DNA of 64,000 nucleotides from Minisyncoccota bacterium (GTDB lineage: Bacteria > Patescibacteriota > Minisyncoccia > Phycocordibacterales > PALSA-1337). The notes below the pieces were generated by a model that made no database searches, was not told where the DNA came from, and saw nothing but the letters and a program-made list of their open reading frames with translations. The position numbers and the translations under genes were made by a program. Below, in pieces: positions 3,114 to 60,154 of this stretch. The stretch lies in the NCBI GenBank assembly GCA_041671485.1, contig JBAZBL010000002.1:9320-73319 (forward strand), in the 5' to 3' direction. The first letter of the stretch is position 1; each line of letters opens with the position of its first letter.

Positions 3114-3782
3114 ATGAAGACCGCAAAAACAATGAAAACTAAGGATTGCATGGCGGATTTCTTTAGGCGTTTCGGTAAATCCGAAGCCCTGATTGAGTTC
3201 GCGGAGGTACAATCCGACACTGAAAGAATGTGGCGCAAACACGGCATTATGCCGACAGGAGAAGTTCTTCTTCGGGTGTGTTATTTTCTGGATCTGATCG
3301 GATACAAAGTTGAAGAGCTTATGCGGGTCCACCCTGACATATTCACGGTTGGACAATGTATAGCTTTCAACCTGATGACTCCACGTATCGTGGAGAGAGC
3401 CATCGGTACGACCGACCGAAAAGCCCTATATCGATATTTTCGAGAAGGCATCGGAGTAACCAGAGAGCGTCTGAATGAATTCAAACTCATTGCAGATTCT
3501 CGTCGGTCTCAACTGACCGAAATGGTAAAACAGAAGCGTCTCGGTTTGAAACAGTTGCTCGGTAATTCACCAAGCCACAGTAACAAACCAGACGATTCAT
3601 TGATAGGCGAATTTGCTGCAGCTTGTTCGAGCGTAAGAACACTAGGAGGGAAACTCTTGGAGGGTCCTGTTGAAAATCGAATACGGATGCGGCAAAAAAT
3701 GGTTGAAGGGCCAGAACCGGCTCTTCATCTGACTTGGGAAACACTGAACAACCTGTTAAGCGAAAAGAAAGGAATCATATGA
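3114..3782 (+). CDS. Hypothetical protein (222 aa), middle gene of the three-gene cassette
   Basis: ORF with no recognisable motifs. Its stop TGA overlaps the downstream ATG (ATGA), indicating translational coupling. Confidence 0.45.
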   Translation: MKTAKTMKTKDCMADFFRRFGKSEALIEFAEVQSDTERMWRKHGIMPTGEVLLRVCYFLDLIGYKVEELMRVHPDIFTVGQCIAFNLMTPRIVERAIGTTDRKALYRYFREGIGVTRERLNEFKLIADSRRSQLTEMVKQKRLGLKQLLGNSPSHSNKPDDSLIGEFAAACSSVRTLGGKLLEGPVENRIRMRQKMVEGPEPALHLTWETLNNLLSEKKGII

Positions 3783-5416
3783 ATGCAATTAATGTTGCAC
3801 TACATCAGGGTAAAGTCATGTATAGGTTGGCGAAAAACTATGCCGATCTATCAGCAGTAATCAAGGAGGTCGTGCAGAATTCTGTCGACTCTTGTGCCAA
3901 ACGAATCGCTATTCAAATAAGTGTGCCACAGCGCACCTTTACTGTGTATGACAATGGTTCGGGGGCTAGCCGTGAGAAAATCACGCAAGCCCTTCAATCC
4001 ATTGGTAATACCCTTAAGGATGTTGGCAAGTATGGGCAGTTTGGACTCGGTCTGATCTCTCCTATTTCCATTGCCCGAGAATTCACCCTGACTTCGTGTC
4101 CGGCACCACGCCGAAGCGATTTCATGGAGTATCGATTCGTAACCGCGACCATCATCAAGCAAAAGCAGGTCTCAATTCCCAGTAGTCCTGTGAGTGGTCT
4201 CGAACACGATCCCAATGGAAAAACTTGGTGGCGCACGAAAGTTAATGTGGGCGGAATCACTAAAGACCGTCGCACCTCGCATCTAGACCCCGCTGAACTG
4301 ACAAGCGATATCGCACTCAAGTTTGGCGATGCCATCAGGGAAAGGCAAATTGACATTACCATCGACATTACCAATGACGATGGACACCAGTCAATCCTCA
4401 AGGTTGAGGCCCCCCAATTCTCCGGAAGAAAGATTGATGTCTTTAAGGAGGAAATGCCCGAGAGCGGCAAGGTAAAGGTTGAGCTCTACATTGCTCCTTT
4501 GGGACGTCGCGGTCGTCAAGGAAAAGTCGTCTTTGGCACAATGAACAACCCATCGCGCCTTTCACCGAAGCAATTCGTTGATTGCACCGTGACATTGCTC
4601 GATCAGCCGGTCGCTAAAGCACTCCTCTCTGGGGTTTTTGAGGGTCAAGTGCTCTGTGAGAAGGTTGCTCTACATGCTGACCGTACCAAATTCGAGGAGA
4701 ACGACGCACTCTTTGTGCTTTGTGAAGTTCTTGGGTTCTGGCATAAGAAGGTCGGTAAGAAAATCATTATTGAGGTGGAAGAACAGGCCTCCGACGATCG
4801 ATTCCAACGAATCGGTGTACAAGTGATGCCATATGCCGAGCTCCTGCTAAAACAGGTGGAGTTCGAATCAGTGGCGAGATTGATCACAGTCGGGTCTGTT
4901 GGTCCTGAACATGTCAAAGTTTCTCGAAAACAGATCATTGGTCAGGATGATGGCACTTCAGTATCAATTGGGGGTAAACCTTTTGAAGAAAAGGAAATAT
5001 GCAAAGGAGGATCTGGCAGTGGTGGTAAAACAATCCCAAAGATAGACCATCCACTTCATAAACCAGGACTCGTCTACGGCCCTCGCGGTCGCAAACGGAC
5101 TGATGTCAGAAGCAGTTCTACAGGTCTCCGGTTTGAACACGTCGAGATGGAAGACTTCAGGGTTCCTTTCGTCTTTGAACCACGGACCGGCATGTTGTCA
5201 TTCAACATCAACAATCCCAACTGGGGATTGTGCCAAGAAAATGACACTTTCCTGTCGGACTATCACATGGCGGTAATCAATACCGCCCTGTCTGCTGAAT
5301 TGTTCAGAGATACGGGTGGAATGATTCACCCCGAAGTGACCAAGTTTGCTCACGAGAATCTGTCTCATCAGGTCTTTGCTATCAGGAACGGCAAAGCCAT
5401 CCAAGTGAAGCACTAA
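3779..5416 (+). CDS. GHKL (Bergerat-fold, HATPase_c/MORC-MutL-Hsp90-like) ATPase with a large uncharacterised C-terminal region
   Basis: N-box E-VVQNSVDS, G1 box DNGSG, G2 box GQFGLGL within the first ~110 aa. A GAAAGGAA SD precedes the ATG at 3779. An alternative in-frame start at 3734 overlaps the upstream gene. Confidence 0.6.
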   Translation: MNAINVALHQGKVMYRLAKNYADLSAVIKEVVQNSVDSCAKRIAIQISVPQRTFTVYDNGSGASREKITQALQSIGNTLKDVGKYGQFGLGLISPISIAREFTLTSCPAPRRSDFMEYRFVTATIIKQKQVSIPSSPVSGLEHDPNGKTWWRTKVNVGGITKDRRTSHLDPAELTSDIALKFGDAIRERQIDITIDITNDDGHQSILKVEAPQFSGRKIDVFKEEMPESGKVKVELYIAPLGRRGRQGKVVFGTMNNPSRLSPKQFVDCTVTLLDQPVAKALLSGVFEGQVLCEKVALHADRTKFEENDALFVLCEVLGFWHKKVGKKIIIEVEEQASDDRFQRIGVQVMPYAELLLKQVEFESVARLITVGSVGPEHVKVSRKQIIGQDDGTSVSIGGKPFEEKEICKGGSGSGGKTIPKIDHPLHKPGLVYGPRGRKRTDVRSSSTGLRFEHVEMEDFRVPFVFEPRTGMLSFNINNPNWGLCQENDTFLSDYHMAVINTALSAELFRDTGGMIHPEVTKFAHENLSHQVFAIRNGKAIQVKH

Positions 5417-5436
5417 AGAACAAATTATGTGTACAC

Positions 5437-5471
5437 ATCACCACGGACATCATGTCTGTGGTGATTTTTTA
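5437..5471 (+). terminator. Rho-independent terminator
   Basis: atcaccacgga...tctgtggtgat stem followed by TTTTTTATT. Confidence 0.55.
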
Positions 5472-5611
5472 TTAAAATATATCTTAACTTCTATATTTCT
5501 TTGCTATTCATTTCGTCGCTGAGTAAAGTTACCTAGCGTGGCGTACTGTGTGGTTTGGTGCGGAGCGATTGATCGTAAGGTCAGTCGCTTTTTATATACA
5601 CCAAAGATTTT

Positions 5612-6259
5612 ATGATACAATTCTCGAACATGATTTATATTTTTCTTGATGAAAGTGGAGATTTGGGATTTGGTGAGCGTTCTACTCGCTGGTTTGTGAT
5701 TGCTACTATTATAACTACAAATTTCAGACCAATAGAGAAAGCTGTGACAAAGATATGGTGTTCGATGTCAAAAAAATATCAGAAACACGGAGAACTTCAC
5801 GCCAATTTTCATAATAGTTCAATACGAAGAAGATTTGTAAAAGCTATATCTAAAATAGAAAATTTAAATATAGCTTATGTGGTAGTAAATAAGCGAAATA
5901 CACCACATAACATAAAATATGAACATGAAAATCTGTATACATATGCGACCTATGTTTTATTGGAGAAGATTCAGTCACTTGGAATAATTACTCATGACAA
6001 TCAAGTGACACTTTGTGCGGATAAAAGATCCACAAATAAGATATTGAACAAGCATTTTACAGAATATATCACTAAATTGACAGAAAAGAATAGAGATGAG
6101 CCAATAAAGGTTGAGTTAATCAATTCGAGTAATAGCAAATCATTACAAGCAGTAGATTTTGTGTCATGGGCAATCTTTAGGAAATACGAAAGAAATGATC
6201 ACGAATTGTATGATTTGATAAGAGAACAGATCTGTAGTGAACAGATTTTATATCAATAA
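5612..6259 (+). CDS. DUF3800 family protein
   Basis: N-terminal IYIFLDESGDLGF motif typical of DUF3800. Very low GC compared with both flanks. Confidence 0.6.
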   Translation: MIQFSNMIYIFLDESGDLGFGERSTRWFVIATIITTNFRPIEKAVTKIWCSMSKKYQKHGELHANFHNSSIRRRFVKAISKIENLNIAYVVVNKRNTPHNIKYEHENLYTYATYVLLEKIQSLGIITHDNQVTLCADKRSTNKILNKHFTEYITKLTEKNRDEPIKVELINSSNSKSLQAVDFVSWAIFRKYERNDHELYDLIREQICSEQILYQ

Positions 6260-7124: not shown

Positions 7125-8966
7125 TTACTTTCTATCAGAAATCTCTCTCTGTAACTTCTCCAATATTTCCGCGGTTGGTAATTGTCCCACCTGCCCATTG
7201 TCCCTACTTTCCAACGTAACCTTGTTTGCCTCCACATCTTTGTCGCCAATAATTATAAAATAGGGGATTTTTGCTGTTTTCGCATTTCTGACTTTTTTGC
7301 CGAATCCATCATTTGAAATATCGAGTTCGGAGCGAATGAATGAGTCGTGTAATGATTCATGGACTTTTCTAGCAGTATCAAAATGAGTTTCTCCGATTGG
7401 TATGACTTTCACTTGAATAGGTGCAAGCCATAGAGGGAAGTTGCCACCATAATGTTCGATCAAAAATCCGATGAAGCGTTCATGTGTGCCGAGAGGAGCG
7501 CGGTGAATGCAGAGCGGAGTTTTCTTTGTGCCATCTTTATCGGTATATTCAAGATCAAATCTTTTTGGTACAGCAAAGTCAACTTGATTGGTTGCTAGGG
7601 TAAATTCTTTGCCAATAGCAGACCATACTTGTACATCTATCTTTGGTCCATAGAATGCGGCTTCATTGGCTACTTCTACGAAAGGTATTTTGGAATCAAC
7701 TAGTACTTTGCGTACCATATCTTCTGTTTTCTTCCATAATTCTGGCTCATCTACAAACTTTTTGCCAAGCTTCTTTGGATCGTGTGTAGAGAAACGCATT
7801 ATGTATTTGTCTATGCCAAATATCTTGAAATATTTTATATACATATCATTTACAGCCTGGAATTCACTGGCAAACTGTTCTTCTGTGCAATAGATATGTG
7901 CATCATTCATAGAAAGCATACGGACACGCATAAGGCCAAATAGTTCACCAGACTTTTCGTGGCGATAATTTGTGCCATATTCGGCTAAGCGCAAAGGTAG
8001 ATCGCGATAGCTTCTCATTCTAGAAGCAAAGATTTTGTGATGATGTGGACAATTCATGGCCTTGAGATAGTATTTGCCACCTTCATACTCCATAGGAGGG
8101 AACATAGATTCTTCATAATATGGCAAATGACCACTCTTCAGATACATAGAATCTTTGGCTATATGAGGAGTCCTAACCCTCTTATAATTCATCATGAATT
8201 CTGTTTCCTTTGCAAGTTTTTCCAATTCCTCTATCATAGCTGCGCCATTGGGTAACCATAGTGGAAGTCCTGGTCCAACATCATCATCAAATTCAAATAT
8301 ATCCATCTCTTTACCTATCTTGCGATGGTCTCTCTTTTCCGCTTCTTTCATCATGGTCTCATATTCAGATAGCTCTTTTTTATTTTCAAAAGCAAGTCCA
8401 TATATGCGAGTAAGCATTTTGTTTTTCTCATCACCACGCCAATATGCACCAGCTATGCGAGAAAGTTTCCACGAATCGGGCTTTATTTCTTTTGCAGGAT
8501 TTTCGACATGACCACCGCGACAGAGGTCGGTGAATGAAACCGCAACCTCCTCGGCGCGACGAAATGCCTTCGTTGGCTTCGCCAAGTCGCCATTTGTCGC
8601 CGCCTCAACGGTTGCGGTTTCGCTTTTATTTCCAACAGTGTAAAAAGTAATTATTTCTCCCGACTTTTCCAAGTCTTCTATCAATTCTAGTTTATAAGTA
8701 TTATCCTTGAATGAATCTTTAGCCTCCTCTGGACTCACTTCTTTATGCGAAAATGCTTGCCACTTTGGCAAAAGCTCTTTCATCTTTTTCTCTATCTTCG
8801 GCAAATCTTCATCAGTAATTTTCAAATCATCAAAGTCGTAATAAAAACCATTATCAATAGCAGGACCAATAGTGTTTTTTGCTTCTGGATATAGCTCCAA
8901 AACTGCTGCCGCTAGTAGGTGCGCGAGAGTATGTCTTTTCTTTGATAATTCTTCTGAAGGATTCAT
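7125..8966 (-). CDS. thrS: Threonyl-tRNA synthetase, short form lacking N-terminal TGS/editing domains
   Basis: Class II aaRS core plus C-terminal anticodon-binding domain. Strong similarity to ThrRS catalytic region (e.g. LAEYGTNYRHEKSGELFGLMRVR, HRAPLGTHERFIGFLIEHYGG, IIIGDKDVE). Confidence 0.88.
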   Translation of the reverse strand: MNPSEELSKKRHTLAHLLAAAVLELYPEAKNTIGPAIDNGFYYDFDDLKITDEDLPKIEKKMKELLPKWQAFSHKEVSPEEAKDSFKDNTYKLELIEDLEKSGEIITFYTVGNKSETATVEAATNGDLAKPTKAFRRAEEVAVSFTDLCRGGHVENPAKEIKPDSWKLSRIAGAYWRGDEKNKMLTRIYGLAFENKKELSEYETMMKEAEKRDHRKIGKEMDIFEFDDDVGPGLPLWLPNGAAMIEELEKLAKETEFMMNYKRVRTPHIAKDSMYLKSGHLPYYEESMFPPMEYEGGKYYLKAMNCPHHHKIFASRMRSYRDLPLRLAEYGTNYRHEKSGELFGLMRVRMLSMNDAHIYCTEEQFASEFQAVNDMYIKYFKIFGIDKYIMRFSTHDPKKLGKKFVDEPELWKKTEDMVRKVLVDSKIPFVEVANEAAFYGPKIDVQVWSAIGKEFTLATNQVDFAVPKRFDLEYTDKDGTKKTPLCIHRAPLGTHERFIGFLIEHYGGNFPLWLAPIQVKVIPIGETHFDTARKVHESLHDSFIRSELDISNDGFGKKVRNAKTAKIPYFIIIGDKDVEANKVTLESRDNGQVGQLPTAEILEKLQREISDRK

Positions 8967-9011
8967 GAGTAAAATATAACATTTTATTGTTTTCCTTGCT
9001 ATATAGTCCTT

Positions 9012-9032
9012 TACCGAAATCGGATCTCGGTA
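9012..9032. repeat. Palindrome family A copy 1 (taCCGAaATCgGATCTCGGta)
   Basis: Near-perfect 10-nt arms. Lies in the divergent intergenic region between thrS and the cupin gene. Related copies at 32895-32915 and 50103-50121. Confidence 0.6.
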
Positions 9033-9096
9033 GTGATTATCTGGTATAATAAATATACAGTCTTGAAAATAGGAATTAATAAATAATTATAATAAT

Positions 9097-9492
9097 ATGA
9101 ATAAAGAGCCACATATATCGAATATCGAGAAATTAACAGTAGAAAATGACTATTTCCGCCAAGTGATCTATACAGCTCCGCATAGCCAACTTGTCTTAAT
9201 GTCTCTTTTGCCCGGTGAAGAGATAGGATCTGAAACACATCTGAAAGTCGATCAATTCTTCCGTTTCGAGAAAGGGGAGGGTAAAGCTATAGTAAATGGT
9301 GTCGAATACAAAGTCGAAGATGGTATAGCGCTTCTGGTTCCTGCAGGATCCGAGCACAATATCATAAATACTGGTAATGAAGCACTCAAATTGTATACAG
9401 TGTATTCTCCAGCAAATCACATAGATGGACGCATCCACAAGACCAAAGATGAAGCTTTACAGGATATTGAAGATGAAAAGTTTGGGGAGTAA
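9097..9492 (+). CDS. Cupin-domain protein
   Basis: 131 aa with cupin-2-like motifs (G-x5-H-xH...E...G...P-x-G-x2-H-x3-N). Confidence 0.6.
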   Translation: MNKEPHISNIEKLTVENDYFRQVIYTAPHSQLVLMSLLPGEEIGSETHLKVDQFFRFEKGEGKAIVNGVEYKVEDGIALLVPAGSEHNIINTGNEALKLYTVYSPANHIDGRIHKTKDEALQDIEDEKFGE

Positions 9493-9567
9493 ATCTTGAT
9501 ATTAAAAGACTCCAGTACATGTGGTACTGGAGGTAATCTGACATGTAGTTAGTAGAGGATGTGCTCT

Positions 9568-10242
9568 CTAGATCACTCCACTGACGATCTCTTTGATCCC
9601 AGATAGGAGGTCATATTGACCTACAAATTCATGGAACGATCCAGGTCTCTGATTTGCAAAGCTGATTGCAGCTTTCATTGCTTCTGGGTAGCGTCGAGCA
9701 GGTTTGGTCTGGCAATTCGGCTGTTGGTCTTTGGACTTGTTTCTCGTATCAGATGATAGCCTTTCCTGCATGCTTTCCCAGAACATGTGTTCTGCTTCTT
9801 CTGCCACGTATAGGAGACGCACATTCACAAACTCCTTCAGGAACATATGAACTTGGTCTTTGTGTAGTGGCAATCCAAAAGCGATGATATGATTGTAATC
9901 ACCAACATCTTTCCTTGTAACATGGCGAACAAACTTGACAAAAGCAGTTGCAACCAACCTGACAGGCAATGTATCGCTACTTCTGTGATGATCTGAGATT
10001 TTCAAGATCTTAACCCCCGTTGGTGTTTCCGCATGAAGATTCCATGATACAGCATGCCCCAAACTGGTGATAAGAGTGCCGTTGCGATCAAAATCATTCT
10101 GGACTGATTCCACCATTGATTTGATCAGAAAGCCACTTTCTGAATTGTTTGTTGATGCCGTTATGAATGTTACTGGAATCGTCAACTTTCCTGTCTGTTT
10201 TGCTTGCTCCGAATGTCTCTTTTGCAACATAATGTGCTCCAA
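9568..10242 (-). CDS. Hypothetical protein (224 aa)
   Basis: ORF in a slightly higher-GC segment. No family recognised. Confidence 0.35.
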   Translation of the reverse strand: MEHIMLQKRHSEQAKQTGKLTIPVTFITASTNNSESGFLIKSMVESVQNDFDRNGTLITSLGHAVSWNLHAETPTGVKILKISDHHRSSDTLPVRLVATAFVKFVRHVTRKDVGDYNHIIAFGLPLHKDQVHMFLKEFVNVRLLYVAEEAEHMFWESMQERLSSDTRNKSKDQQPNCQTKPARRYPEAMKAAISFANQRPGSFHEFVGQYDLLSGIKEIVSGVI

Positions 10243-10393
10243 TCTGTTTTTTTGTCGAGATTCCTCCTAATCCATTATTTAGAAAGAACCATTACTAGTC
10301 AAAGACGATATCATACTTTTTGAATATTAGCAAGCGAAAACTATAAGGATTAATATTGATGAGCTCAAGGTAATTCTTCGATTATTTTAGATT

Positions 10394-10589
10394 TTAAGAA
10401 AACAATATGTTATTTCATGTCCGAGGACTGTCTGAACGAGTATAAATTTCTTGGTAAAATGCGTAGGTTGTGGGAATTGCTACGAAACTGAGGCATGTAA
10501 TGCCGAAGTATCGAGCAATTCAATAGCATTTTACCTAGAAATTTACCGAGTGAGTTCCGCAGGACATGAAATAACATATTGTTTTCTTA
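10394..10589. repeat. Long imperfect palindrome / MITE-like element (~196 nt)
   Basis: Perfect 29-nt terminal inverted repeats (ttaagaaaacaatatgttatttcatgtcc at 10394-10422; its reverse complement at 10561-10589). Internal nested inverted repeats include ggtaaaatgc/gcattttacc. Confidence 0.6.
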
Positions 10590-10681
10590 AAGCATAGATT
10601 TTATCATTTCTTCAGCGAAATTTTATCAAAATTTTAGGAGAATTTTATCAGGATTTTATCTCTCTCTGATACGATGCTCGT

Positions 10682-11818
10682 ATGATTACGATAAAAGACT
10701 TGTCACTACAGAAGATAACATCTTTTCCAATGATGCCAGGAACAGCGTTTGAAGCTATAGATGATATTCTATGGTATGCAACTTCTATGAAAGCATCAGA
10801 TATCCATATAGATCCACGCATTTCTGACATACTAATAAGATTGCGAATAGATGGTCATATAGAAGAAGTAGGAATTTGGGAAAAAAGATTGCATGAAGAA
10901 ATTATTGCCAGATTGAAGATATTGGCTTGTGTAAGGACAGATCTTCATGCAGTACCACAAGACGGTAGATGGAAAGCATCAATTCGAAATGAAGAATTCA
11001 ATATACGAGTTTCATTTATGCTCACTTATCATGGTGAAAATGCTGTTATACGTCTACTACCAGCACGAGTGCCAAAACATATTTCTTTTTCCAAATTGGG
11101 ATTTACACCAGACCATGTAAGGATGATAGACCATGCTCTGAAGCGACCAAATGGCCTCATCCTTGCTACTGGTCCAACAGGTTGTGGCAAAACCACCACT
11201 CTCCATACTTGTCTATCATTCAAGGCCAGAGAACCACTATCTATCATCACTCTCGAAGATCCAGTCGAATATGAGATAGATGGTGTGAGACAAGTACATA
11301 TCAAACACAATCTAGGCATCACTTTTCCTATAGGACTTCGTGCTGCATTACGCCAAGATCCAGATGTCATCATGGTTGGAGAGATAAGAGACAATGAAAC
11401 TGCTAGAGTTGCAATCCATACAGCTCTCACTGGACATTTGGTATTTTCTACGCTTCATACAAATTCCGCACTCGAATCCATATTGCGTTTGGTTGATATG
11501 AATGTCGATAACTATCTTCTCGCTTCTACTTTGCGATTGGTCATTTCACAAAGATTGGTCAGAAATATCTGTCATGAATGTTCGCTAGCAGGATGTAGCA
11601 GTTGTAGAGGAACTGGATATGTAGGTAGATCTGTCATAGCCGAAGTGTGTGAGATTGATTCAGGATTGTCTCAATTGATTGCAAATAAAGAAGCACCGTC
11701 TGTGATTCGAGACTATGTGATATCAAAAGGATTTAGACCAATAAGTGAAGATGGAGCCGAAAAAGTCGAATGGGGAGTAACTACAAAAGAAGAGATTCTG
11801 CGCGTCTTGGCCGAATAA
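10682..11818 (+). CDS. pilB: Type IV pilus / type II secretion assembly ATPase (PilB/GspE family)
   Basis: Walker A GPTGCGKTTT, Asp box ITLEDPVEY, VGEIRD, His box TLHTN, and the tetracysteine motif CHEC...CSSC. Confidence 0.85.
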   Translation: MITIKDLSLQKITSFPMMPGTAFEAIDDILWYATSMKASDIHIDPRISDILIRLRIDGHIEEVGIWEKRLHEEIIARLKILACVRTDLHAVPQDGRWKASIRNEEFNIRVSFMLTYHGENAVIRLLPARVPKHISFSKLGFTPDHVRMIDHALKRPNGLILATGPTGCGKTTTLHTCLSFKAREPLSIITLEDPVEYEIDGVRQVHIKHNLGITFPIGLRAALRQDPDVIMVGEIRDNETARVAIHTALTGHLVFSTLHTNSALESILRLVDMNVDNYLLASTLRLVISQRLVRNICHECSLAGCSSCRGTGYVGRSVIAEVCEIDSGLSQLIANKEAPSVIRDYVISKGFRPISEDGAEKVEWGVTTKEEILRVLAE

Positions 11819-11840: not shown

Positions 11841-12902
11841 GTGATAAAAAATATATTTCAAAAAAGAAAATGGAAAAGGCGCGAACTTATTTTATTTCTA
11901 GAAAGACTAGAATTGTATATTTCTTCTGGTTTACCACTCGACATGTGTCTCCAAATCTCAAGTGATGGTGTTACAAAGAGACAAAAGAAAATAGTTCTTG
12001 ATATTAGGTCTGCAGTTCTCTTGGGAAGTCAATTATCGAAAGCAATGGTTGTAAATATGAATTTATCAAATACAATTGCTGGTCTTATAAGGCACGGTGA
12101 GACTTCTGGTCAACTAGGAAAAGCGCTTGTTTATGCAAAAGAACTCTTGGAAAGGGAAGAAGATCTAATAAAAAAATGTATCTCTGCACTTATTTATCCT
12201 ACTGTGATAGGAATATTTGCAATAATCCTCACATTTGCACTTGTGAAAGGCGTTATGCCACAGATCATCCCTATGCTTCGTAGTCTGAATGTACAATTGC
12301 TACTCATTACTAGAATTATTATGTTCATATCAGAGAATCTAATGAAATATAGTATTCATTTGATAGTCTTTGGTATTTTATCGACAGTAGGCCTTTTGAT
12401 TTTATATAAAAAGGTTGAGACTTTTCGGAATAAATGTCAGTCTTTTATTTCAAGATTGCCTATTATAGGTCGTTTGATAAATCTGTATTATATATCTCTA
12501 TTTACCCAATCACTCGGTTCACTCATAGAATCTGGTACATCACTTACGATTGCTTATTCAAATACAGTCTCTTCTTTGTCTTTTGCTCCAATAAAGCTTT
12601 TATGTAAAAAACAAGAAGATAATGTAAAAAATGGTTATTCACTAGGTTTAGTTTTTGCAAAAATTCATAGATTGCCACCATATATTGCACCACTTATATC
12701 TGCAGGCGAAATGGCTGGTACTCTCGGTAATTCTCTCATCCGCACAGCAAAGATTGCTGATAGTGATCTAGAATACTCTCTCAAGAAGATTACCTCTCTC
12801 ATAGAGCCAGTAATGATGGCTGGTATGGGACTTGTAGTTGGAGCGATCGCACTTTCTATAGTTTTACCAATATATGATGTATCAAAAGTTCTACAACAGT
12901 GA
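11841..12902 (+). CDS. pilC: Type IV pilus platform protein (PilC/GspF family)
   Basis: 353-aa polytopic membrane protein with GspF-like repeats. Immediately downstream of pilB. Confidence 0.75.
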   Translation: MIKNIFQKRKWKRRELILFLERLELYISSGLPLDMCLQISSDGVTKRQKKIVLDIRSAVLLGSQLSKAMVVNMNLSNTIAGLIRHGETSGQLGKALVYAKELLEREEDLIKKCISALIYPTVIGIFAIILTFALVKGVMPQIIPMLRSLNVQLLLITRIIMFISENLMKYSIHLIVFGILSTVGLLILYKKVETFRNKCQSFISRLPIIGRLINLYYISLFTQSLGSLIESGTSLTIAYSNTVSSLSFAPIKLLCKKQEDNVKNGYSLGLVFAKIHRLPPYIAPLISAGEMAGTLGNSLIRTAKIADSDLEYSLKKITSLIEPVMMAGMGLVVGAIALSIVLPIYDVSKVLQQ

Positions 12903-15284: not shown

Positions 15285-15503
15285 TTATTTTTCAGAAAAC
15301 TTATTACGAGATATTTTCGATTGTTTCACAATTGCGAGAAATGTCCCTATTGGAATCACTTTGTTACTACCATGACAAGGAACTGGTACAGATACTCCGG
15401 TTTCTTCATTATAAAAAATATGGTGACTGCCTTTCTGACGAGATAGAACGAATCCATTCATTTCAAGAATGGTGATAATTCGCTTAGCAGTTAGCGGTCG
15501 CAT
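15285..15503 (-). CDS. hicA: HicA-family mRNA interferase toxin
   Basis: LTAKRIITILEMNGFVLSRQKGSHHIF...PIGTFLAIVKQ matches the HicA signature (KGSHH). Start taken at an internal Met of the 87-aa ORF. Confidence 0.6.
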   Translation of the reverse strand: MRPLTAKRIITILEMNGFVLSRQKGSHHIFYNEETGVSVPVPCHGSNKVIPIGTFLAIVKQSKISRNKFSEK

Positions 15504-15771
15504 ATGAAGTTTTTGTCCGGCGGGGTATAGGAGATAAATTTCTCCCAATTACATATTCAATAGACACAGACATTATTTTTTGTCCGTGTTCCGTAAGTTC
15601 TTCAATCCATAACTGAAGAACCTCCTTGGCTTTTCTTTTTGCCTCTGCGAAAGTTCTGCCGAAAGTGACGCAACCTGGAAAGTCAGGAAAAGAGACTTCG
15701 TAACAACCTTTTTTATACGGTTTGAAAATGGCATTATAAGTCATAGTTGTTTTTGGTCCAATTAATTTCAT
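15484..15771 (-). CDS. hicB: HicB-family antitoxin (N-terminal UPF0150-like domain)
   Basis: YEVSFPDFPGCVTFGRTFAEAKRKAKEVLQLWIEEL is typical of HicB. Overlaps the hicA start by about 20 nt. Confidence 0.5.
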   Translation of the reverse strand: MKLIGPKTTMTYNAIFKPYKKGCYEVSFPDFPGCVTFGRTFAEAKRKAKEVLQLWIEELTEHGQKIMSVSIEYVIGRNLSPIPRRTKTSYATANC

Positions 15772-31673: not shown

Positions 31674-32825
31674 TTGTATACTATACCCATGAATTATAAT
31701 AGAATAATAAGCAAGGCTTTACTTGAAAATATAGGCAAAAAACCTATATTGGTACTTTATGGTGCGAGACAGGTCGGTAAAACAACATTGATAAAATCCA
31801 TTTTGGAAAAGTTTACAAAGACATTGTATTTACAAGGAGATGACCCGAAGGATGCTTTACTACTTGAACATAGATCAACAGATGAGCTTAGAGATCTCGT
31901 GTCAGGTTACGATCTCGTTGTTATTGATGAGGCTCAGAGAGTGAAAGATATCGGTACGACGCTCAAGTTGATCGCTGATAATGTAAAAGATGTGAGAGTC
32001 ATTGCATCAGGGTCGTCTGCATTTGAATTGGCTAATAGGTTGAGTGAGCCTCTGACAGGTAGAAATCGTAAATTTTATCTTTACCCACTGTCCATGTCGG
32101 AACTGATAGAGGCATACGGGAAAATAAATACGAGCAAAGAACTCGAGACATATATGTCCTTTGGCATGTATCCAAAGATCGTATCCGCAGAGTCTAGAGA
32201 GGAAAAAGCACTTCTAGTAAAAGAGTTGGCAGGGGATTATCTATTCAAGGACTTGTTCATGTTCGGAGACATTCGAAACTCATTTGCTTTTGAAAAACTC
32301 ATAAAACTCCTGGCACTTCGCATAGGTGGCGAGATTTCTTACTCAGAATTGGCAAAAGAAGTCGGAATAAGTAGAGATACGGTGTTGAATTATATCAAAT
32401 TACTTGAACAAGCGTTCATAATATTCCGATTGACACCTCTATACACCAATAAGTCCAAGGAGATAAACAAAAGCCACAAGATATATTTCTATGATGTTGG
32501 TATCAGAAATGCTCTCATCAATAATACCGATCCAATGGAATTGCGTCTAGATAAAGGTGCGATTTTTGAGAATTTCTTTATCGCAGAAAAAGTGAAAGAA
32601 AAAGAATATTCTGGTCGTACAAGTGAAATCCATTTCTGGAAGAGTCGCAGTGGAAGTGAGGTCGATTTTGTCGAAGTCTCTGGTGGTTCTATCAATGCTT
32701 TTGAATGTAAATGGAAGGAAGTGGTTAAGGCTCCGAAGACGTGGTTAGAAACATATCCAAAATCAAGCTTTGAATGTGTCACAACAGAAAATATACTCGA
32801 TTCATTTGCTGTCAAAACTTTATAA
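31674..32825 (+). CDS. AAA-family ATPase with DUF4143-like C-terminal domain
   Basis: Walker A GARQVGKTTL and Walker B DLVVIDEAQRV. Confidence 0.65.
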   Translation: MYTIPMNYNRIISKALLENIGKKPILVLYGARQVGKTTLIKSILEKFTKTLYLQGDDPKDALLLEHRSTDELRDLVSGYDLVVIDEAQRVKDIGTTLKLIADNVKDVRVIASGSSAFELANRLSEPLTGRNRKFYLYPLSMSELIEAYGKINTSKELETYMSFGMYPKIVSAESREEKALLVKELAGDYLFKDLFMFGDIRNSFAFEKLIKLLALRIGGEISYSELAKEVGISRDTVLNYIKLLEQAFIIFRLTPLYTNKSKEINKSHKIYFYDVGIRNALINNTDPMELRLDKGAIFENFFIAEKVKEKEYSGRTSEIHFWKSRSGSEVDFVEVSGGSINAFECKWKEVVKAPKTWLETYPKSSFECVTTENILDSFAVKTL

Positions 32826-37304: not shown

Positions 37305-37766
37305 ATGACAAATCAATTTCAAAATCCAAAGTATCTAATTATTATTGTTCTTTTGGTCATGGTATTGACTCCGATGCTAGTCAATGCAGCCAATCCTATA
37401 ACAGATGTATTCAATAGTAATTTCAAACTTTCTGTTTGCGATGGCCCTGCCAAGAATCCAAATGCAAATGCAACGAACTATCCCAATGGTTATGTAGCAT
37501 GCGACTTCAATGGTCTCATGTTACAAGCACAGCATCTTATTAATGTTTTTATAATATTTGGTGTTTTGGCGGCGATAGTAAGTTTTAGTTATGCTGGGTA
37601 TCTATATATTACTGGTGTAGAGAAAAATATAAGTCATGCAAGAGAGATCTTCCGTAAAACTGGCATAGGTCTTATAATGATGTTGACTGCATGGTTTGTT
37701 GTTTATCAGATACTGGACTGGCTAGTCGCAGATCCGGGGGTAAAGACACTTTTGGGGACACCATAA
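37305..37766 (+). CDS. Small secreted 2-TM protein, paralog 1 (VirB2/TrbC-pilin-like topology)
   Basis: Signal peptide plus two hydrophobic helices. First of six tandem paralogs. Confidence 0.5.
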   Translation: MTNQFQNPKYLIIIVLLVMVLTPMLVNAANPITDVFNSNFKLSVCDGPAKNPNANATNYPNGYVACDFNGLMLQAQHLINVFIIFGVLAAIVSFSYAGYLYITGVEKNISHAREIFRKTGIGLIMMLTAWFVVYQILDWLVADPGVKTLLGTP

Positions 37767-37783
37767 TTGTTGAATAAATATAT

Positions 37784-38272
37784 ATGAGAAAAATTATTTT
37801 TATAACTATAATTGCAGTCTTAATTGCTACTGGACCATTATCTGTATTTGCACAGAATTTATCAAATCAGACAGGTGGATCAACGTCAGGACAGACCGGA
37901 GGATCAACATCAGGACAAACTGGTGGTCCAAGTAATTCAAACACGAATACAATAACTCTAAAGAATCCACTAAAACCAGAAATAAACTCTGTTGGTGCAA
38001 TAGTGAGTGAAGGAGTGAAAATCTTTAGTTATGTTGTTGTCTTATTTGCTGTAATTGTACTTATATGGGTTGGCTTGCAATTTATTCTTGCAAGAGGTAA
38101 TGCAGAAGAATTGAAAAAGCTCAAACTATGGCTTACATGGGTAGTTGTTGGTGTTGCTATAGTCATAGGTGCTAGGATAATCATAGAATTGGTCATAAAC
38201 ACTTTGAGCTCTACGAATCTGGTCGATCAAAATGTTATTCAAAGTGCAGGTCAAGCTATAAGGAGTCAATAA
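37784..38272 (+). CDS. Small secreted 2-TM protein, paralog 2 (with GGSTSGQT repeats)
   Basis: Same architecture. Carries a tandem GGSTSGQT x3 low-complexity insert. Confidence 0.5.
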   Translation: MRKIIFITIIAVLIATGPLSVFAQNLSNQTGGSTSGQTGGSTSGQTGGPSNSNTNTITLKNPLKPEINSVGAIVSEGVKIFSYVVVLFAVIVLIWVGLQFILARGNAEELKKLKLWLTWVVVGVAIVIGARIIIELVINTLSSTNLVDQNVIQSAGQAIRSQ

Positions 38273-38293
38273 AATATTTATAAATAAAATAAT

Positions 38294-38689
38294 ATGAATA
38301 AAAAAATATATATAACAATATCGTCACTTGCTCTAGTATGTTTGCCACTATTTGCATTTGCTCAACAAAAGAAAGATTTGAATTATCTCATTTCTTTGTT
38401 TACAGATTATCTCAATAAAATACTATTGGTGATGATGGGTGTGGCCGTAGTTTTGTTCGTCTATTACATAATCAAATTCTTCTTAAGGCCAAGTGACAAA
38501 AGAGAAGAAGGTGCAAAATATCTCATGTGGAGTATTATTGGTTTCTTCATCATCTTATCATTTTGGGGTGTAGTGAATGTTCTGAAAAATACTTTCAATC
38601 TCGATAGTGAACGTCCTGCTTCATGGAGCGATTTCTTCAATATTTTTCCTAGAAATACTAATTCTGGAGGTACGACCTTAACTAGATAA
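38294..38689 (+). CDS. Small secreted 2-TM protein, paralog 3
   Basis: Shared motif W.I.G..I..S.WG.VN.L.NTF. Confidence 0.5.
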   Translation: MNKKIYITISSLALVCLPLFAFAQQKKDLNYLISLFTDYLNKILLVMMGVAVVLFVYYIIKFFLRPSDKREEGAKYLMWSIIGFFIILSFWGVVNVLKNTFNLDSERPASWSDFFNIFPRNTNSGGTTLTR

Positions 38690-38700
38690 ACTGATAGGCA

Positions 38701-39123
38701 ATGAATCAAACAGTATTCAATACAATAAATAATGCGAATGACCTATTTGGAAGATTGATGTATCTTGGCAATCTCATAATATATCTACTAATAGCTCTCG
38801 GTGTTGTATATATAGTATGGAATATAGTTATATATTTTATCAAAGGCAAAGAGGGCGATGAGAATCGTAGAGAGTCTGGCAAACATATTATGTGGGGTAT
38901 AGTTGGTCTGGCGATAATATTATCAGTTTGGGGCTTGGTCAATATTTTGGTCAATACATTTAGGACAAATCCTAATGAACCAAGAGATCGTTTCCCAAAT
39001 GCTGACTTCGTCAATTCTCAATCAGGACAAACTAATTCAGGCCAATACTATGATCGTAATATAGATAATCGTATGATTGACGCCCCTCAAGGCTGGGAGA
39101 GACAATATGAGAATATGATCTGA
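38701..39123 (+). CDS. Small secreted 2-TM protein, paralog 4
   Basis: IMWGIVGLAIILSVWGLVNILVNTF. Confidence 0.5.
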   Translation: MNQTVFNTINNANDLFGRLMYLGNLIIYLLIALGVVYIVWNIVIYFIKGKEGDENRRESGKHIMWGIVGLAIILSVWGLVNILVNTFRTNPNEPRDRFPNADFVNSQSGQTNSGQYYDRNIDNRMIDAPQGWERQYENMI

Positions 39124-49460: not shown

Positions 49461-50003
49461 TTATCGGCGTCCACCACCGTGGCCACCACCACCATGGGTG
49501 CTGTACGACGGGTACACTGCTCCCGGAGGCGAGCTGTATTGATTCCCGTACCGAGTGTAAACACTCGGCCCCGGTTGCTGGTAAACAGCACCGGGCGGGT
49601 ATGAGATCTGGTCGGGGTACCTCACATACGACGATCCTCCGTTGTAGTATGTTGGGACGGAATTGTACGTTGGTGCGTATCCACCGGAGTACCCGACACT
49701 ACCGGATCCGGTCCAGTAATGAGTTTGCCCACTGCTATTCATCGGGGTGATGGAGACATTGTTCTCCGCCCCGACAGGGATCTGCGACCAGTACTTGCGG
49801 TTGTAGGACTGACTCCCAACGAGAGCCCACCCCTTCGAGTGGTCTTCATAGGTGGACAAGTCCACCGTGTTACCACAGGCGTCCTTGGTGATGTGATTGC
49901 GTTTGACCACATCGTTCTTCTGGTACGTTGCACAACCAGTGCCGACGACCGACACTGCGATGAGACCAACCGTCAGGACAACCAACGAAACTAAATTCTT
50001 CAT
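49461..50003 (-). CDS. Gly/Tyr/Pro-rich putative lipoprotein (higher GC)
   Basis: Signal peptide with lipobox-like VGTGC. The C-terminal half is low-complexity G/Y/P/S. Confidence 0.45.
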   Translation of the reverse strand: MKNLVSLVVLTVGLIAVSVVGTGCATYQKNDVVKRNHITKDACGNTVDLSTYEDHSKGWALVGSQSYNRKYWSQIPVGAENNVSITPMNSSGQTHYWTGSGSVGYSGGYAPTYNSVPTYYNGGSSYVRYPDQISYPPGAVYQQPGPSVYTRYGNQYSSPPGAVYPSYSTHGGGGHGGGRR

Positions 50004-50128: not shown

Positions 50129-50286
50129 GCATAGCTTGATGAGATATGCTCTTGAGCCGACACGCAATGCGATCTGAGCCATGAACAAATTGCTCGTATT
50201 TGCTGAATCCTTGTAAGCAAATACGATTGCAATTTGGAATGGCGACCTTGCGTGGAGGCGAGGGAGCATATCTCATCAAGCTATGC
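50129..50286. repeat. Long inverted-repeat / MITE-like element (~158 nt)
   Basis: Perfect 23-nt terminal inverted repeats (gcatagcttgatgagatatgctc at 50129-50151; its reverse complement at 50264-50286). Nested inner inverted repeat ttgctcgtatttgct / agcaaatacgattgcaa. Confidence 0.6.
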
Positions 50287-50475
50287 TGAGAATCGGAGGT
50301 GCGACCTCCGATATTGGCACTATCCCAGAGTTATCCACAGGTCGCCTTGTGGTGTGGATAGCGAGAAGTGTTGTAGAATAGCAGTAAGTGGGAAGAAGTG
50401 GGATAAGTAAAAAACGTACATATGTTCATCATTTGAATACGTCATACAAACTGCTTCAATACCCGCAAAATTTAT

Positions 50476-50919
50476 ATGCTCATTGGCGAATACAAGCACA
50501 CTATCGACGGCAAGAATCGCCTCTCCATACCTGTCAAATTTCGACAGGAAATGGGGAATAAGGTGATCATAACGAGCGGGCTCGATAACTGTCTCTTCAT
50601 CTTTACGATGATAGAGTGGGAAAGAGTCACAGCACGTTTGTCGGCTTCGGAAGCGTCAATGTTGCAGGCGGACAATCGAGGCTTCAACCGTTATCTCCTC
50701 GGAGGAGCGGTTGAAGTCGAGATTGATACAGTAGGTCGTATGCTCATACCACAATATTTGCGTGATAGGGGCAATCTAATAAAAAGTAAGGTTGTGATAG
50801 TAGGCGTGAGAGATCGTGCCGAAATATGGGATGAAGAAAATTGGGAAAAGTATAGGAGTGGGGTCGAACAAAATGTCGATGCATTGGCAGAGAAGCTGGG
50901 ACAGAGTAGTGAAAAGTAA
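50476..50919 (+). CDS. mraZ: Transcriptional regulator MraZ
   Basis: N-terminal GEYKHTIDGKNRLSIP and duplicated MraZ half-domains. First gene of the dcw cluster. Confidence 0.8.
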   Translation: MLIGEYKHTIDGKNRLSIPVKFRQEMGNKVIITSGLDNCLFIFTMIEWERVTARLSASEASMLQADNRGFNRYLLGGAVEVEIDTVGRMLIPQYLRDRGNLIKSKVVIVGVRDRAEIWDEENWEKYRSGVEQNVDALAEKLGQSSEK

Positions 50920-55208: not shown

Positions 55209-55280
55209 GGCCCTATCGTCTAACGGTTAGGACATTGCCTTCTCAAGGCAGTAATCCGGGTTCGATTCCCGGTAGGGTCA
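55209..55280 (+). tRNA. tRNA-Glu (anticodon CUC)
   Basis: Hand-folded cloverleaf: acceptor ggcccta/tagggtc (one G-U pair), D arm gtc..gac, anticodon stem ttgcc/ggcag with loop ttCTCaa (U33, A37), T arm ccggg-ttcgatt-cccgg, discriminator A. No encoded CCA. Confidence 0.65.
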
Positions 55281-55286
55281 CTCGGT

Positions 55287-55322
55287 CAAAAAAGACTGGA
55301 TTATTCCAGTCTTTTTTGACCG
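55287..55322. terminator. Perfect 15-bp hairpin (gtcaaaaaagactgg / ccagtcttttttgac), bidirectional terminator-like
   Basis: Perfect inverted repeat with internal A/T runs, immediately 3' of the tRNA. Confidence 0.5.
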
Positions 55323-58098: not shown

Positions 58099-58938
58099 AT
58101 GCTATCTAATAATATGGCTGAAATAAACAAAAAAATCATAGTTTCAGGCACAAAAATATCAGTTGTCTCAAAAGACGGCCAAGATTACCTGTCTCTCACA
58201 GAAATGCTCAAGGCAAAAGATGGTGATTTTTTTATTGCTGATTGGCTCAGAAATAGGAATACTGTTGAATTTCTGGGAATATGGGAGAGTATAAACAACC
58301 CCGATTTTAATTATGGCGAATTCGCCACAATTAAAAGCCAAGCAGGGCTTAACAGCTTCAAAATCAGCGCTAAAGAATGGGTGCAAAAGACTAGGGCGAT
58401 AGGTCTCAAGGCTACTGCTGGTAGGTATGGAGGCACATTTGCACATAAAGACATCGCTTTTGAATTTGGCATGTGGATCAGTCCTCAATTTAAACTTTAC
58501 TTAATCAAAGAGTTCCAAAGGTTAAAAGATGAAGAAAAGATAAGAATAGAAACGGGCTGGGATGTAAAAAGATTACTAGCAAAAGTTAATTATCGTATTC
58601 ATACAGATGCTATCAAGGCACATCTGATACCTCCCAAGATAAGCCATATTTCCTCAACTATTTTATATGCCAATGAAGCGGATATTTTAAATGTCGCTCT
58701 ATTCGGTTTAAGCGCAAAAGAGTGGCGAGATAAAAATAAAGATAAACAAGGAAATGTGAGAGATTATGCAACTGTTGAGCAACTTGTAGTGCTTGTAAAT
58801 CTAGAATCACTCAATGCACAATACATTATTGAGGGAGTTTCTCAACCCTTGAGACTCGCCAAACTCAATGAAATAGCGATATCACAAATGAGATCTTTGA
58901 TAAATAATCCATCAATTAAGAAATTAGAAATAAAATAA
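58099..58938 (+). CDS. KilA-N domain protein (phage-associated)
   Basis: GGTFAHKDIAFEFGMWISPQFKLYLIKEFQRL closely matches the KilA-N core. Confidence 0.6.
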   Translation: MLSNNMAEINKKIIVSGTKISVVSKDGQDYLSLTEMLKAKDGDFFIADWLRNRNTVEFLGIWESINNPDFNYGEFATIKSQAGLNSFKISAKEWVQKTRAIGLKATAGRYGGTFAHKDIAFEFGMWISPQFKLYLIKEFQRLKDEEKIRIETGWDVKRLLAKVNYRIHTDAIKAHLIPPKISHISSTILYANEADILNVALFGLSAKEWRDKNKDKQGNVRDYATVEQLVVLVNLESLNAQYIIEGVSQPLRLAKLNEIAISQMRSLINNPSIKKLEIK

Positions 58939-59221
58939 CAAGGTTTGTAGTCCTCCCAAATCCCGCCAAAAAAATGGGAGCCCGCACGCATTCCTCTTCA
59001 GACCACTCCTGTGTGCGGGCGAGCAGAGCACTCTTACAGGGTCAGTACACCTTTTGGATATTTTCATTCGCTTCGCTCTGAAAATCTCAATTGTGGTACT
59101 GGTCCTGTAAGGACCGATTCCCGGTAGGGTCACATTCAAACTTTATAAGAATTTAGTATTTTGCATAACTTTATAAAGTTTGGTAATATGTTTATATTCG
59201 GTATTTAGGCCGTTTACCAAC

Positions 59222-60154
59222 ATGACCACTCGTCAAAAGCTCGAGATTATTCAGAAAATGCTGGGACTAACCCAAACCAAATTAGCCGAACGGGTTGGCG
59301 TGTCTTTTGCTGCATTCAACAGTTGGTGGACTGGCAAGTCGGAACCGAGAGCAAAAGCACTAGCCGTTATAGACGAGCTATTCATGGAGATAACTGGGCA
59401 GAAAGTTATTCCAGCTGATCAACTTACTGCAAAGAAAAAAGCTATTGAGCAAAAATCTAGCGAGCACAAGAATGTGATCCAAGAAATTTTGAATAACCCT
59501 GATATCCGTGACCAATTCATCCTCAAGCTTACATATCATAGCAACAGCATTGAGGGTAGCACCCTTACCGAGCCTGATACTGCTGCTATTCTTTTTGATA
59601 ATGCGGCATTGCCTGACAAGAGTCTGACAGAACAGCTTGAAGCAAAGAATCACCAAACAGCGTTGAATTATCTGTTTGGACATATCCTGAAAGACGAGAA
59701 AATTGATGAAAATCTAATCTTGAAATTACACAGTATTCTCATGAACGGAATCCGTCCAGATGCAGGTGCTTACAGAAATCATGGTGTTCGGATCACCGGA
59801 GTCAATCTGCCAACAGCTAATCATATGAGCATTCGTAAGCTCATTGGAGAAGTCTTTGCTCGGGTATCGGAAGACACAAAGGATATTATCAGCTTGTCTT
59901 CTTCGGTTCATGCCAAATTTGAGCAGATCCACCCATTCTCCGATGGCAATGGACGCATCGGCCGACTGTTCATGAATGCAATGCTACTCAAAGAAAATAT
60001 TGCGCCTGCAATTATTCGTCAGGAACAGAAGCGACTTTATTATATGTATCTCTATAAGGCGCAGACTAAAGACGATATGAGTCAGCTCGAGGACTTTCTA
60101 TGTGAAGCAGTTATAGATGGTTTTATGATCTTGGAGAGAAAGGATAAGAGATAG
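59222..60154 (+). CDS. Fic/Doc-family (Fido) protein with an N-terminal HTH
   Basis: Canonical Fic motif HPFSDGNGRIGRL. The N-terminus has an XRE-like HTH (LGLTQTKLAERVGVS). The ORF track starts at TTG 59180; ATG 59222 is preferred. Confidence 0.8.
   Translation: MTTRQKLEIIQKMLGLTQTKLAERVGVSFAAFNSWWTGKSEPRAKALAVIDELFMEITGQKVIPADQLTAKKKAIEQKSSEHKNVIQEILNNPDIRDQFILKLTYHSNSIEGSTLTEPDTAAILFDNAALPDKSLTEQLEAKNHQTALNYLFGHILKDEKIDENLILKLHSILMNGIRPDAGAYRNHGVRITGVNLPTANHMSIRKLIGEVFARVSEDTKDIISLSSSVHAKFEQIHPFSDGNGRIGRLFMNAMLLKENIAPAIIRQEQKRLYYMYLYKAQTKDDMSQLEDFLCEAVIDGFMILERKDKR

Follow-up and report, generated by a model that had tools for sequence, protein, structure and literature searches.

A 199-nt palindrome upstream of the pilus gene pilB lies at a site where long hairpins of different sequence recur in related Paceibacteria

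The window (by which we mean the whole 64-kb stretch of DNA analyzed) carries a type IV pilus operon whose first gene, at 10682-11818 on the + strand, encodes a PilB/ComGA-like assembly ATPase (Pfam T2SSE, E = 1.5e-101) and is followed by pilC (11841-12902; a T2SSF match) and then by more pilus genes. Homologues of this PilB are Patescibacteria proteins, Paceibacteria-like, and its nearest relatives other than itself are only ~75% identical. Facing away from pilB on the - strand (9568-10242) is an ORFan gene of 220-224 amino acids with no Pfam or NCBIfam match; a search of 5.8 billion proteins returned nothing but the protein itself, from an NCBI Candidatus Paceibacterota MAG, and with only this self-match, it was useless as a marker for finding close relatives. 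The noncoding gap between the two genes measures 439 nt (10243-10681), or 451 nt if the gene start in the ENA record is used, and not the 410 nt reported when the DNA was first read from its letters. Within this gap, at 10393-10591, lies a hairpin-forming palindrome of 199 nt. The best σ70-like site for the divergent gene, a consensus match only (TTGACT-17-AATAAT, 10 of 12 positions, 10274-10302 on the - strand), is to the left of the palindrome, which would therefore sit between two diverging promoters.

On the pilB side, the + strand between the palindrome and the predicted -10 element is occupied by an array of direct repeats (10598-10662) with ATTT(T/C)ATCA-like units (the ATTTTATCA array) and a period of ~11 nt; the motif occurs at 10599, 10621, 10643, and 10654, with degenerate units between. 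The predicted pilB promoter and start follow at 10667-10684 on the + strand, where an extended -10-like TGA-TACGAT is separated by a 6-nt spacer from the ATG. This arrangement (TG-A-TAnnnT, then 6-7 nt, then ATG or GTG) was found in 8/8 relatives, and the same layout can be read at L011 2851-2928, L097 1517-1586, L009 40-129, L092 2900-3003, L090 2940-3003, L094 ~720-808, and L101 ~990-1076. The repeat array is conserved in all relatives, as seen in an alignment with L011, L097, and L009, and in eight Paceibacteria 4-6 direct units occupy the place of the -35 element. These 11-nt units are reminiscent of OmpR/PhoB-type activator sites, and the array probably binds an activator. Because the extended -10 is fixed at 6-7 nt before the start codon, established promoter geometry indicates that the pilB mRNA is probably leaderless, and the layout suggests that the true pilB start is 10682 (giving a protein of 378 amino acids) and not position 10730 of the ENA record. 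Since the extended -10 lies downstream of the hairpin site in all eight, the palindrome, at -91 to -289 relative to the start codon, would fall outside the pilB mRNA. The genes upstream of pilB vary among relatives (an ORFan, hisS, an ADK-like gene, or a dksA-like gene), and the left flank of the pilB promoter is therefore a variable region. The ORFan and the 241-amino-acid neighbor of pilB in L011 share only 25% similarity and one short N-terminal motif.

The terminal arms of the palindrome (TTTAAGAAAACAATATGTTATTTCATGTCC on the left, 10393-10422, and its partner at 10562-10591, whose outer end and the pilB start codon are 91 nt apart) are 30 nt long and 100% complementary. The sequence-only reading had placed the element at 10394-10589 with perfect arms of 29 nt; the palindrome itself stands, and its limits move outward by 1-2 bases per side. 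Between the arms lies an interior of 139 nt (10423-10561), a degenerate palindrome with indels, which contains a nested inverted repeat of 20 nt and 95% complementarity (10443-10462 and 10526-10545), in agreement with the nested repeats noted earlier, and an apical hairpin, GGCAT-GTA-ATGCC, with a 3-nt loop (10492-10504). Identity to its own reverse complement is 78% for the whole element and 69% for the interior alone, compared with a baseline of ~52% in nonpalindromic interiors. The proposal that the whole element can fold as a hairpin was borne out for DNA and for both RNA strands: the single-stranded DNA fold reached -60.2 kcal/mol versus -16.5 ± 3.0 for shuffled sequences (z = -14.5), the RNA folds reached -93.9 on the + strand (z = -13.5) and -87.1 on the - strand (z = -14.8), and none of 200 shuffles folded as well. 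The longest ORFs in the element encode 55 and 48 amino acids, which leaves it no coding capacity, and for a 58-amino-acid stop-to-stop translation that contains the 55-amino-acid ORF, a search of 5.8 billion proteins found no homologue.

The palindrome is real and not an assembly artifact. It is spanned by an 89-kb MEGAHIT contig (k141_382806; ENA ERZ27249449), and an independent Logan assembly, L096, made from a different run (SRR6484324), agrees at 100% with window positions 8776-10527, covering the left arm and continuing into the interior with the orientation unchanged. In several samples, short-read contigs are interrupted within ~40-270 nt of pilB on its upstream side, at or next to the hairpin and array (L001 starts at 10646, L096 ends at 10527, and L009, L099, and L100 start 40-155 nt before pilB), which suggests that the region upstream of pilB is hard to assemble. 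The breaks at 10646 and 10527 fall off the arm boundaries, and we discarded them as uninformative about inversion or repeats.

A long structured RNA had been put forward as one identity for the element, which could then control the pilus operon either as a separate small RNA or as a long hairpin in the 5' leader, such as an RNase III target. Such an RNA would account for the very stable fold on both strands, it would be compatible with the recurrence of hairpins at this position in other species (described below), and σ70-like sites are present on the + strand upstream of the hairpin in L097. However, the predicted position of the extended -10 puts the pilB transcription start downstream of the hairpin, the best promoter of the divergent gene is likewise past the hairpin, and the species compared have no promoter or terminator in a consistent place. 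The mismatches in the stem also show no G.U bias (n = 6; none would be G.U on the + strand, a single one would be on the - strand, and the remaining 5 would be so on neither strand). Searches of Rfam returned nothing at the gathering score, and a permissive search (E up to 10) gave nothing better than E = 2.5. With the palindrome outside the predicted pilB transcript, the RNA alternative is left unsupported, and we judge it to be very improbable.

Perfect 30-nt repeats that bracket 139 nt of DNA ahead of a pilus operon also call to mind an invertible promoter switch of the fimS type, which would make pilus expression phase-variable, and in L011 a second element has perfect 33-nt arms around 178 nt of nonpalindromic DNA. 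Inversion would change little in the window palindrome, though, because the interior is so largely complementary to itself; moreover, the interior holds no σ70-like site on the + strand, the conserved pilB promoter is outside the repeat, no recombinase gene was found in the 64-kb window, and a single orientation was found in both assemblies (from different runs) that cover the interior. The L097 spacer, of only 31 nt, could neither invert nor accommodate a promoter. We therefore give an inverton almost no weight. Retrons, integron attC sites, parS, DNA-uptake sequences, and type I toxin-antitoxin systems were also considered and rejected, as the palindrome lacks the neighboring gene, motif, copy number, or ORF that each would need. 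With an RNA function disfavored and an inverton very unlikely, an element acting or arising at the level of DNA remains.

We then asked what occupies the same site in relatives. A search of genome contigs with PilB returned mostly distant phyla, and only L011 was useful. Among seven Paceibacteria with readable DNA upstream of pilB, three have a long inverted repeat at the same place, with arms of 30-44 nt that are 89-100% complementary and with spacers of 31 nt (L097), 139 nt (the window palindrome), and 315 nt (L011). In L011, a Paceibacterota MAG (JBAZRX01), the repeats lie between the 241-amino-acid gene on the - strand and pilB. The outer inverted repeat is AT-rich, with arms of 36 nt that pair at 32 of 36 positions (2463-2498 and 2814-2849), and nested in its spacer is a GC-rich inner element of 244 nt (2516-2759; z = -14.5) with perfect 33-nt arms (2516-2548 and 2727-2759), several internal hairpins, and the nonpalindromic 178-nt segment mentioned above; this inner element looks like a separate insertion. 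Another species, represented by L097 and L098 from two samples, has 44-nt arms that are 98% complementary (z = -16.5), with 68 nt between the end of the repeat and the pilB start. No population variation was seen in this hairpin, the four assemblies being identical. The promoter-proximal end of the hairpins thus ranges from -68 to -91 in the three species. In the other four relatives (L094, L090/91, L092/93, and L101/102), no long inverted repeat is present and the leader array adjoins the upstream gene, with gaps of 36-246 nt; at ~70-75% PilB identity, these genomes are too diverged to provide an exact empty site. The start of the L009 contig (GAAGGACATTTG) was considered as a truncated right arm, an assignment that a profile search did not support.

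When one scanner was applied to ~640 kb of sequence, long inverted repeats were found once per 54 kb, and the probability that at least 3 of 7-8 relatives would carry one in the same 400 nt is about 1e-5 (1.4-2.2e-5). We conclude that the positional recurrence of long repeats upstream of pilB is real.

Every one of these hairpins is unique in sequence: the window palindrome, the outer and inner repeats of L011, the repeat of L097, and also a second element in the window. This second element, at 50129-50286, is an unrelated quasi-palindrome of 158 nt with the same foldback architecture (39-nt arms that are 85% complementary, the outer 23 nt perfect; DNA z = -11) and no obvious target duplication, and it lies in the divergent region between an ORF at 49461-50003 on the - strand and mraZ (50476-50919). 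Downstream of it, at 50331-50359, are a perfect DnaA-box-like TTATCCACA and an inverted near-copy, TGTGGATAG, followed (within 50331-50408) by GTGGGAAGAAGTGGGATAAG, which resembles the GTGGG direct-repeat operator of MraZ; the genes after this site are mraZ-mraW-ftsI-murE. A perfect 18-nt hairpin with a 4-nt loop at 55283-55322, directly after the window's only tRNA gene (55209-55280), is probably the tRNA terminator.

Whether the hairpins at the pilB site share ancestry was addressed by comparing their arms. The arms of the window palindrome and of L011 have in common a core, AATATGTT[A/C]TTTCAT, matching at 14 of 15 positions and at equivalent offsets; 13 of 500 shuffles and 2 of 124 real chunks of the window scored as high. 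Aligned by hand, the three arm pairs are 50-60% identical, and between species the positions that differ are matched on both arms in 11/12, 12/12, and 14/17 cases. Leave-one-out profiles recovered the L011 arms weakly (E = 0.07 and 0.65) and recovered neither the arms of the window palindrome nor those of L097, and the PilB tree is star-like, with no clustering of the hairpin-bearing genomes. Since the profiles fail and the tree shows no clustering, we refrain from tracing the three hairpins to one ancestor. An arm sequence conserved in all three was dropped as a candidate, homology being marginal for the window and L011 and absent for L097; from the shared core, common descent of the window and L011 hairpins is possible. 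It had been proposed that a single-copy element conserved in position, with compensated changes, would point to a structured RNA instead of a transposable element; of that scenario, recurrence at one position holds in three of seven relatives, but the homology of the arms is weak and the site is outside the predicted pilB transcript.

The same observations could reflect a regulatory hairpin under selection at the DNA level. An ancestral repeat upstream of the pilB array would have been kept for its pairing or as a pair of inverted protein-binding sites, drifting by compensated changes and being lost in some lineages, and it could be extruded as a cruciform by negative supercoiling. According to the twin-domain model, negative supercoiling builds up between diverging promoters, and this is where the palindrome is predicted to be. 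The shared position in three species argues for such selection, as do the differing positions that are matched on both arms, the shared core of the window and L011 arms, and the resemblance of the arm core to the unit of the leader array. Against it, four of the seven relatives with the same promoter layout have no hairpin, the matched changes come from arms aligned by hand and the unbiased profiles fail for the window palindrome and L097, one mechanism would not easily accommodate spacers as different as 31, 139, and 315 nt, a 31-nt nonpalindromic loop disfavors cruciform extrusion, and near-perfect arms suggest youth over long maintenance. We regard selection of this kind as unlikely, with a chance large enough to make it the main competitor of the reading we prefer. 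A more specific form, in which the hairpins are one functional module defined by structure and selected at -70 to -90 of a leaderless pilus promoter in a subclade of Paceibacteria, appears to us doubtful; such a module would either respond to supercoiling, as a cruciform or insulator placed between the diverging promoters, or offer the array-binding factor a paired distal operator.

Palindromes could also have been made in place without any transposase, by template switching or fold-back priming during replication, with quasi-palindrome correction keeping or extending the arms. The uniqueness of all the hairpins and the lack of a second copy are consistent with local origin, as are the lack of consistent target duplications and of a transposase, and a likeness between the arm core and the neighboring array unit is expected if the arms were copied locally. 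Yet a single inverted duplication predicts uniform symmetry, and the window palindrome has perfect ends around a degenerate interior with indels; the GC-rich element nested in L011 looks foreign to its AT-rich surroundings; and for one site to have undergone three such events independently, the local DNA would have to be strongly predisposed. Formation in place therefore strikes us as rather improbable.

The element had first been described as MITE-like. By definition, a MITE is shorter than 400 bp, carries terminal inverted repeats on either side of a core, lacks a transposase, and folds into a long stem-loop (PMC3184786); the window palindrome matches in each respect, with 199 nt free of any transposase gene, 30-nt terminal repeats, and a long stem-loop. 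Size, terminal repeats, foldback, and noncoding character thus support the description in part, and what speaks against it is the single copy in 64 kb, the lack of a transposase gene in the window, the ambiguity of the flanking repeat, and the lack of any match in the sequence collections searched. No second copy was found in the window, perhaps a tenth of the genome, by searching with the 30-mer arm at ≤3 mismatches, with a 17-mer core, or with a profile of all arms, and the exact 20-mer of the arm is absent from viral contigs and genome contigs. BLAST of the element against plasmids and phages found nothing, nor did scans of viral contigs with the inner arm of L011 and the arm of L097. The k141 MEGAHIT and k31 Logan contigs pass through the element, and this speaks against the genome holding other identical copies. 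Six metagenome matches (L002-L007, TARA/marine) to the arm 20-mer CAATATGTTATTTCATGTCC proved to be chance, falling within a conserved motif encoded by an unrelated family of marine genes; the case of CAATATGTTATTTCATGTCC illustrates that exact 20-mer matches in very large collections need checking.

A transposase with matching terminal repeats had been suggested as a check, and none was found in the 64-kb window: among its likely genes (ORFs of ≥120 amino acids) there is no family match to a transposase or recombinase. Possible defense or mobile genes in the window are an HATPase_c_3 protein beside DUF3800, a HicA/HicB pair, an AAA_14/DUF4143 ATPase, and a KilA-N protein followed by a Fic protein, in the regions 3734-6259, ~15285-15770, 31674-32825, and 58099-60154. 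Four tandem small genes at 37305-39123, downstream of gyrA and a solute-binding protein gene, have T4SS_pilin/TrbC-like matches.

As for a target-site duplication, a direct repeat of 9 nt, TAGATTTTA, is present on both flanks. The left copy (10388-10396, + strand) overlaps the left arm by 4 nt, and the right copy (10595-10603, + strand), 3 nt past the right arm, doubles as the leader array's first unit. Because the repeat is offset and is at the same time a unit of the pilB array, its reading as a possible target-site duplication is ambiguous. The short offset repeat noted in the sequence-only reading, which saw no clear duplication, is this 9-nt TAGATTTTA. A TTAA found at both ends of the element is itself palindromic and indistinguishable from an extension of the inverted repeat. 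No target-site duplication was seen at the hairpins of L011 and L097.

Taken together, these results lead us to favor, tentatively and at somewhat less than an even chance, a young, low-copy foldback insertion at a hot spot upstream of a promoter. Of the identities proposed at the outset, a hot spot for recombination or insertion fits best, given the other long palindromes at the same site in relatives. A single-copy foldback DNA of 199 bp with MITE-like architecture would have been added between the two diverging promoters, probably recently, at or inside the distal end of the conserved ~11-nt repeat array, and different or barely related palindromes occupy the same place in related Paceibacteria, in one genome nested one in another. 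In our view they most likely originate from low-copy, nonautonomous foldback elements that prefer, or are tolerated at, an AT-rich divergent site with phased repeats. We infer young and independent insertions because presence is patchy, the arms are near-perfect (complementarity of 100%, 98%, 100%, and 89% across the hairpins), the sequences are unrelated, the L011 elements are nested, and array-like units lie on both sides of the window palindrome. Any effect of the insertion would not be exerted via the pilB mRNA, since the palindrome is outside the predicted transcript, and could come from shifting upstream sequences by ~200 bp or from hairpin or cruciform formation. Demonstrated here are the palindrome's structure and reality, its single copy in 64 kb, the positional recurrence, the nesting in L011, and the conserved promoter layout, whereas mobility, recency, the leaderless start, and any regulatory effect are deduced. 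Against the preferred reading, the hairpin sequences are unique, unlike those of a repeat family, and neither a second copy, in the window or the collections searched, nor a transposase gene in the window was found; the 14/15 core of the window and L011 arms could in addition mean common descent, with arms kept in step. What probability remains beyond the readings set out here belongs to possibilities we did not consider.

Type IV pili are central to host attachment and DNA uptake in CPR/Patescibacteria, and their regulation is almost uncharted; for Patescibacteria, we found descriptions neither of MITE-like or palindromic elements nor of the structure of pilus promoters in the searchable literature. 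Our analysis provides a promoter model conserved in eight species (an 11-nt phased array, an extended -10, and a predicted leaderless start) and defines a site upstream of the pilB promoter where long palindromes recur. Should the recurring palindromes prove to be mobile foldback elements, no MITE-like elements would have been described before them in Patescibacteria, to judge from the searchable literature, and they would exemplify insertion with a site preference in very small genomes. Should they be hairpins under selection, they would represent a regulatory module based on DNA structure, and a module truly defined by structure would be an unusual control of the attachment and DNA-uptake machine in host-dependent bacteria with reduced genomes. 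Either way, the palindromes are likely break sites for metagenome assemblies.

Several known systems invite comparison. The Correia elements of Neisseria, RUP of Streptococcus pneumoniae, and ERIC of enterobacteria are bacterial MITEs that fold into one long hairpin, and they are found in tens to hundreds of near-identical copies per genome with clear target duplications (TA for Correia). The window palindrome resembles them in being 100-200 bp long and intergenic, with terminal repeats of ~26-30 nt, a full foldback, no transposase gene, and, as is often the case for such elements, a position adjacent to a promoter (PMC3184786 for MITEs in general). It differs from them in its one copy in 64 kb, in the lack of a related copy in the collections searched, in its ambiguous flanking repeat, and in that relatives carry hairpins of other sequence at this locus. 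In E. coli fimS and the invertons of Bacteroides, inverted repeats bracket a segment of 100-300 bp in front of a pilus or fimbrial operon. A segment upstream of a pilus operon is bracketed in the same way here, but without an internal directional promoter or a nearby recombinase, with a near-symmetric interior, in one orientation, and with the promoter outside the repeats. IS5 in E. coli inserts recurrently upstream of the bgl, flhDC, and glpFK promoters, in AT-rich or bent regions, and the recurrence of hairpins at a defined AT-rich region tens of bp upstream of a promoter is similar; the TTAA bracketing the window palindrome fits the YTAR target of IS5-type elements, which we offer as a lead only. 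Unlike the IS5 insertions, no IS or transposase was found, and the elements are tiny and differ in sequence. With promoter-modulating cruciforms the palindrome shares a long perfect repeat between predicted diverging promoters, and its 3-nt apical loop could nucleate extrusion; those cruciforms, by contrast, are mostly engineered or plasmid-borne, and the loop of L097 is 31 nt and the spacer of L011 is 315 nt. The window palindrome is, then, of a known kind, an intergenic foldback repeat beside a promoter; what sets it apart is that it is single-copy and that it is one of several hairpins, unrelated in sequence, found repeatedly at the same promoter-upstream site.
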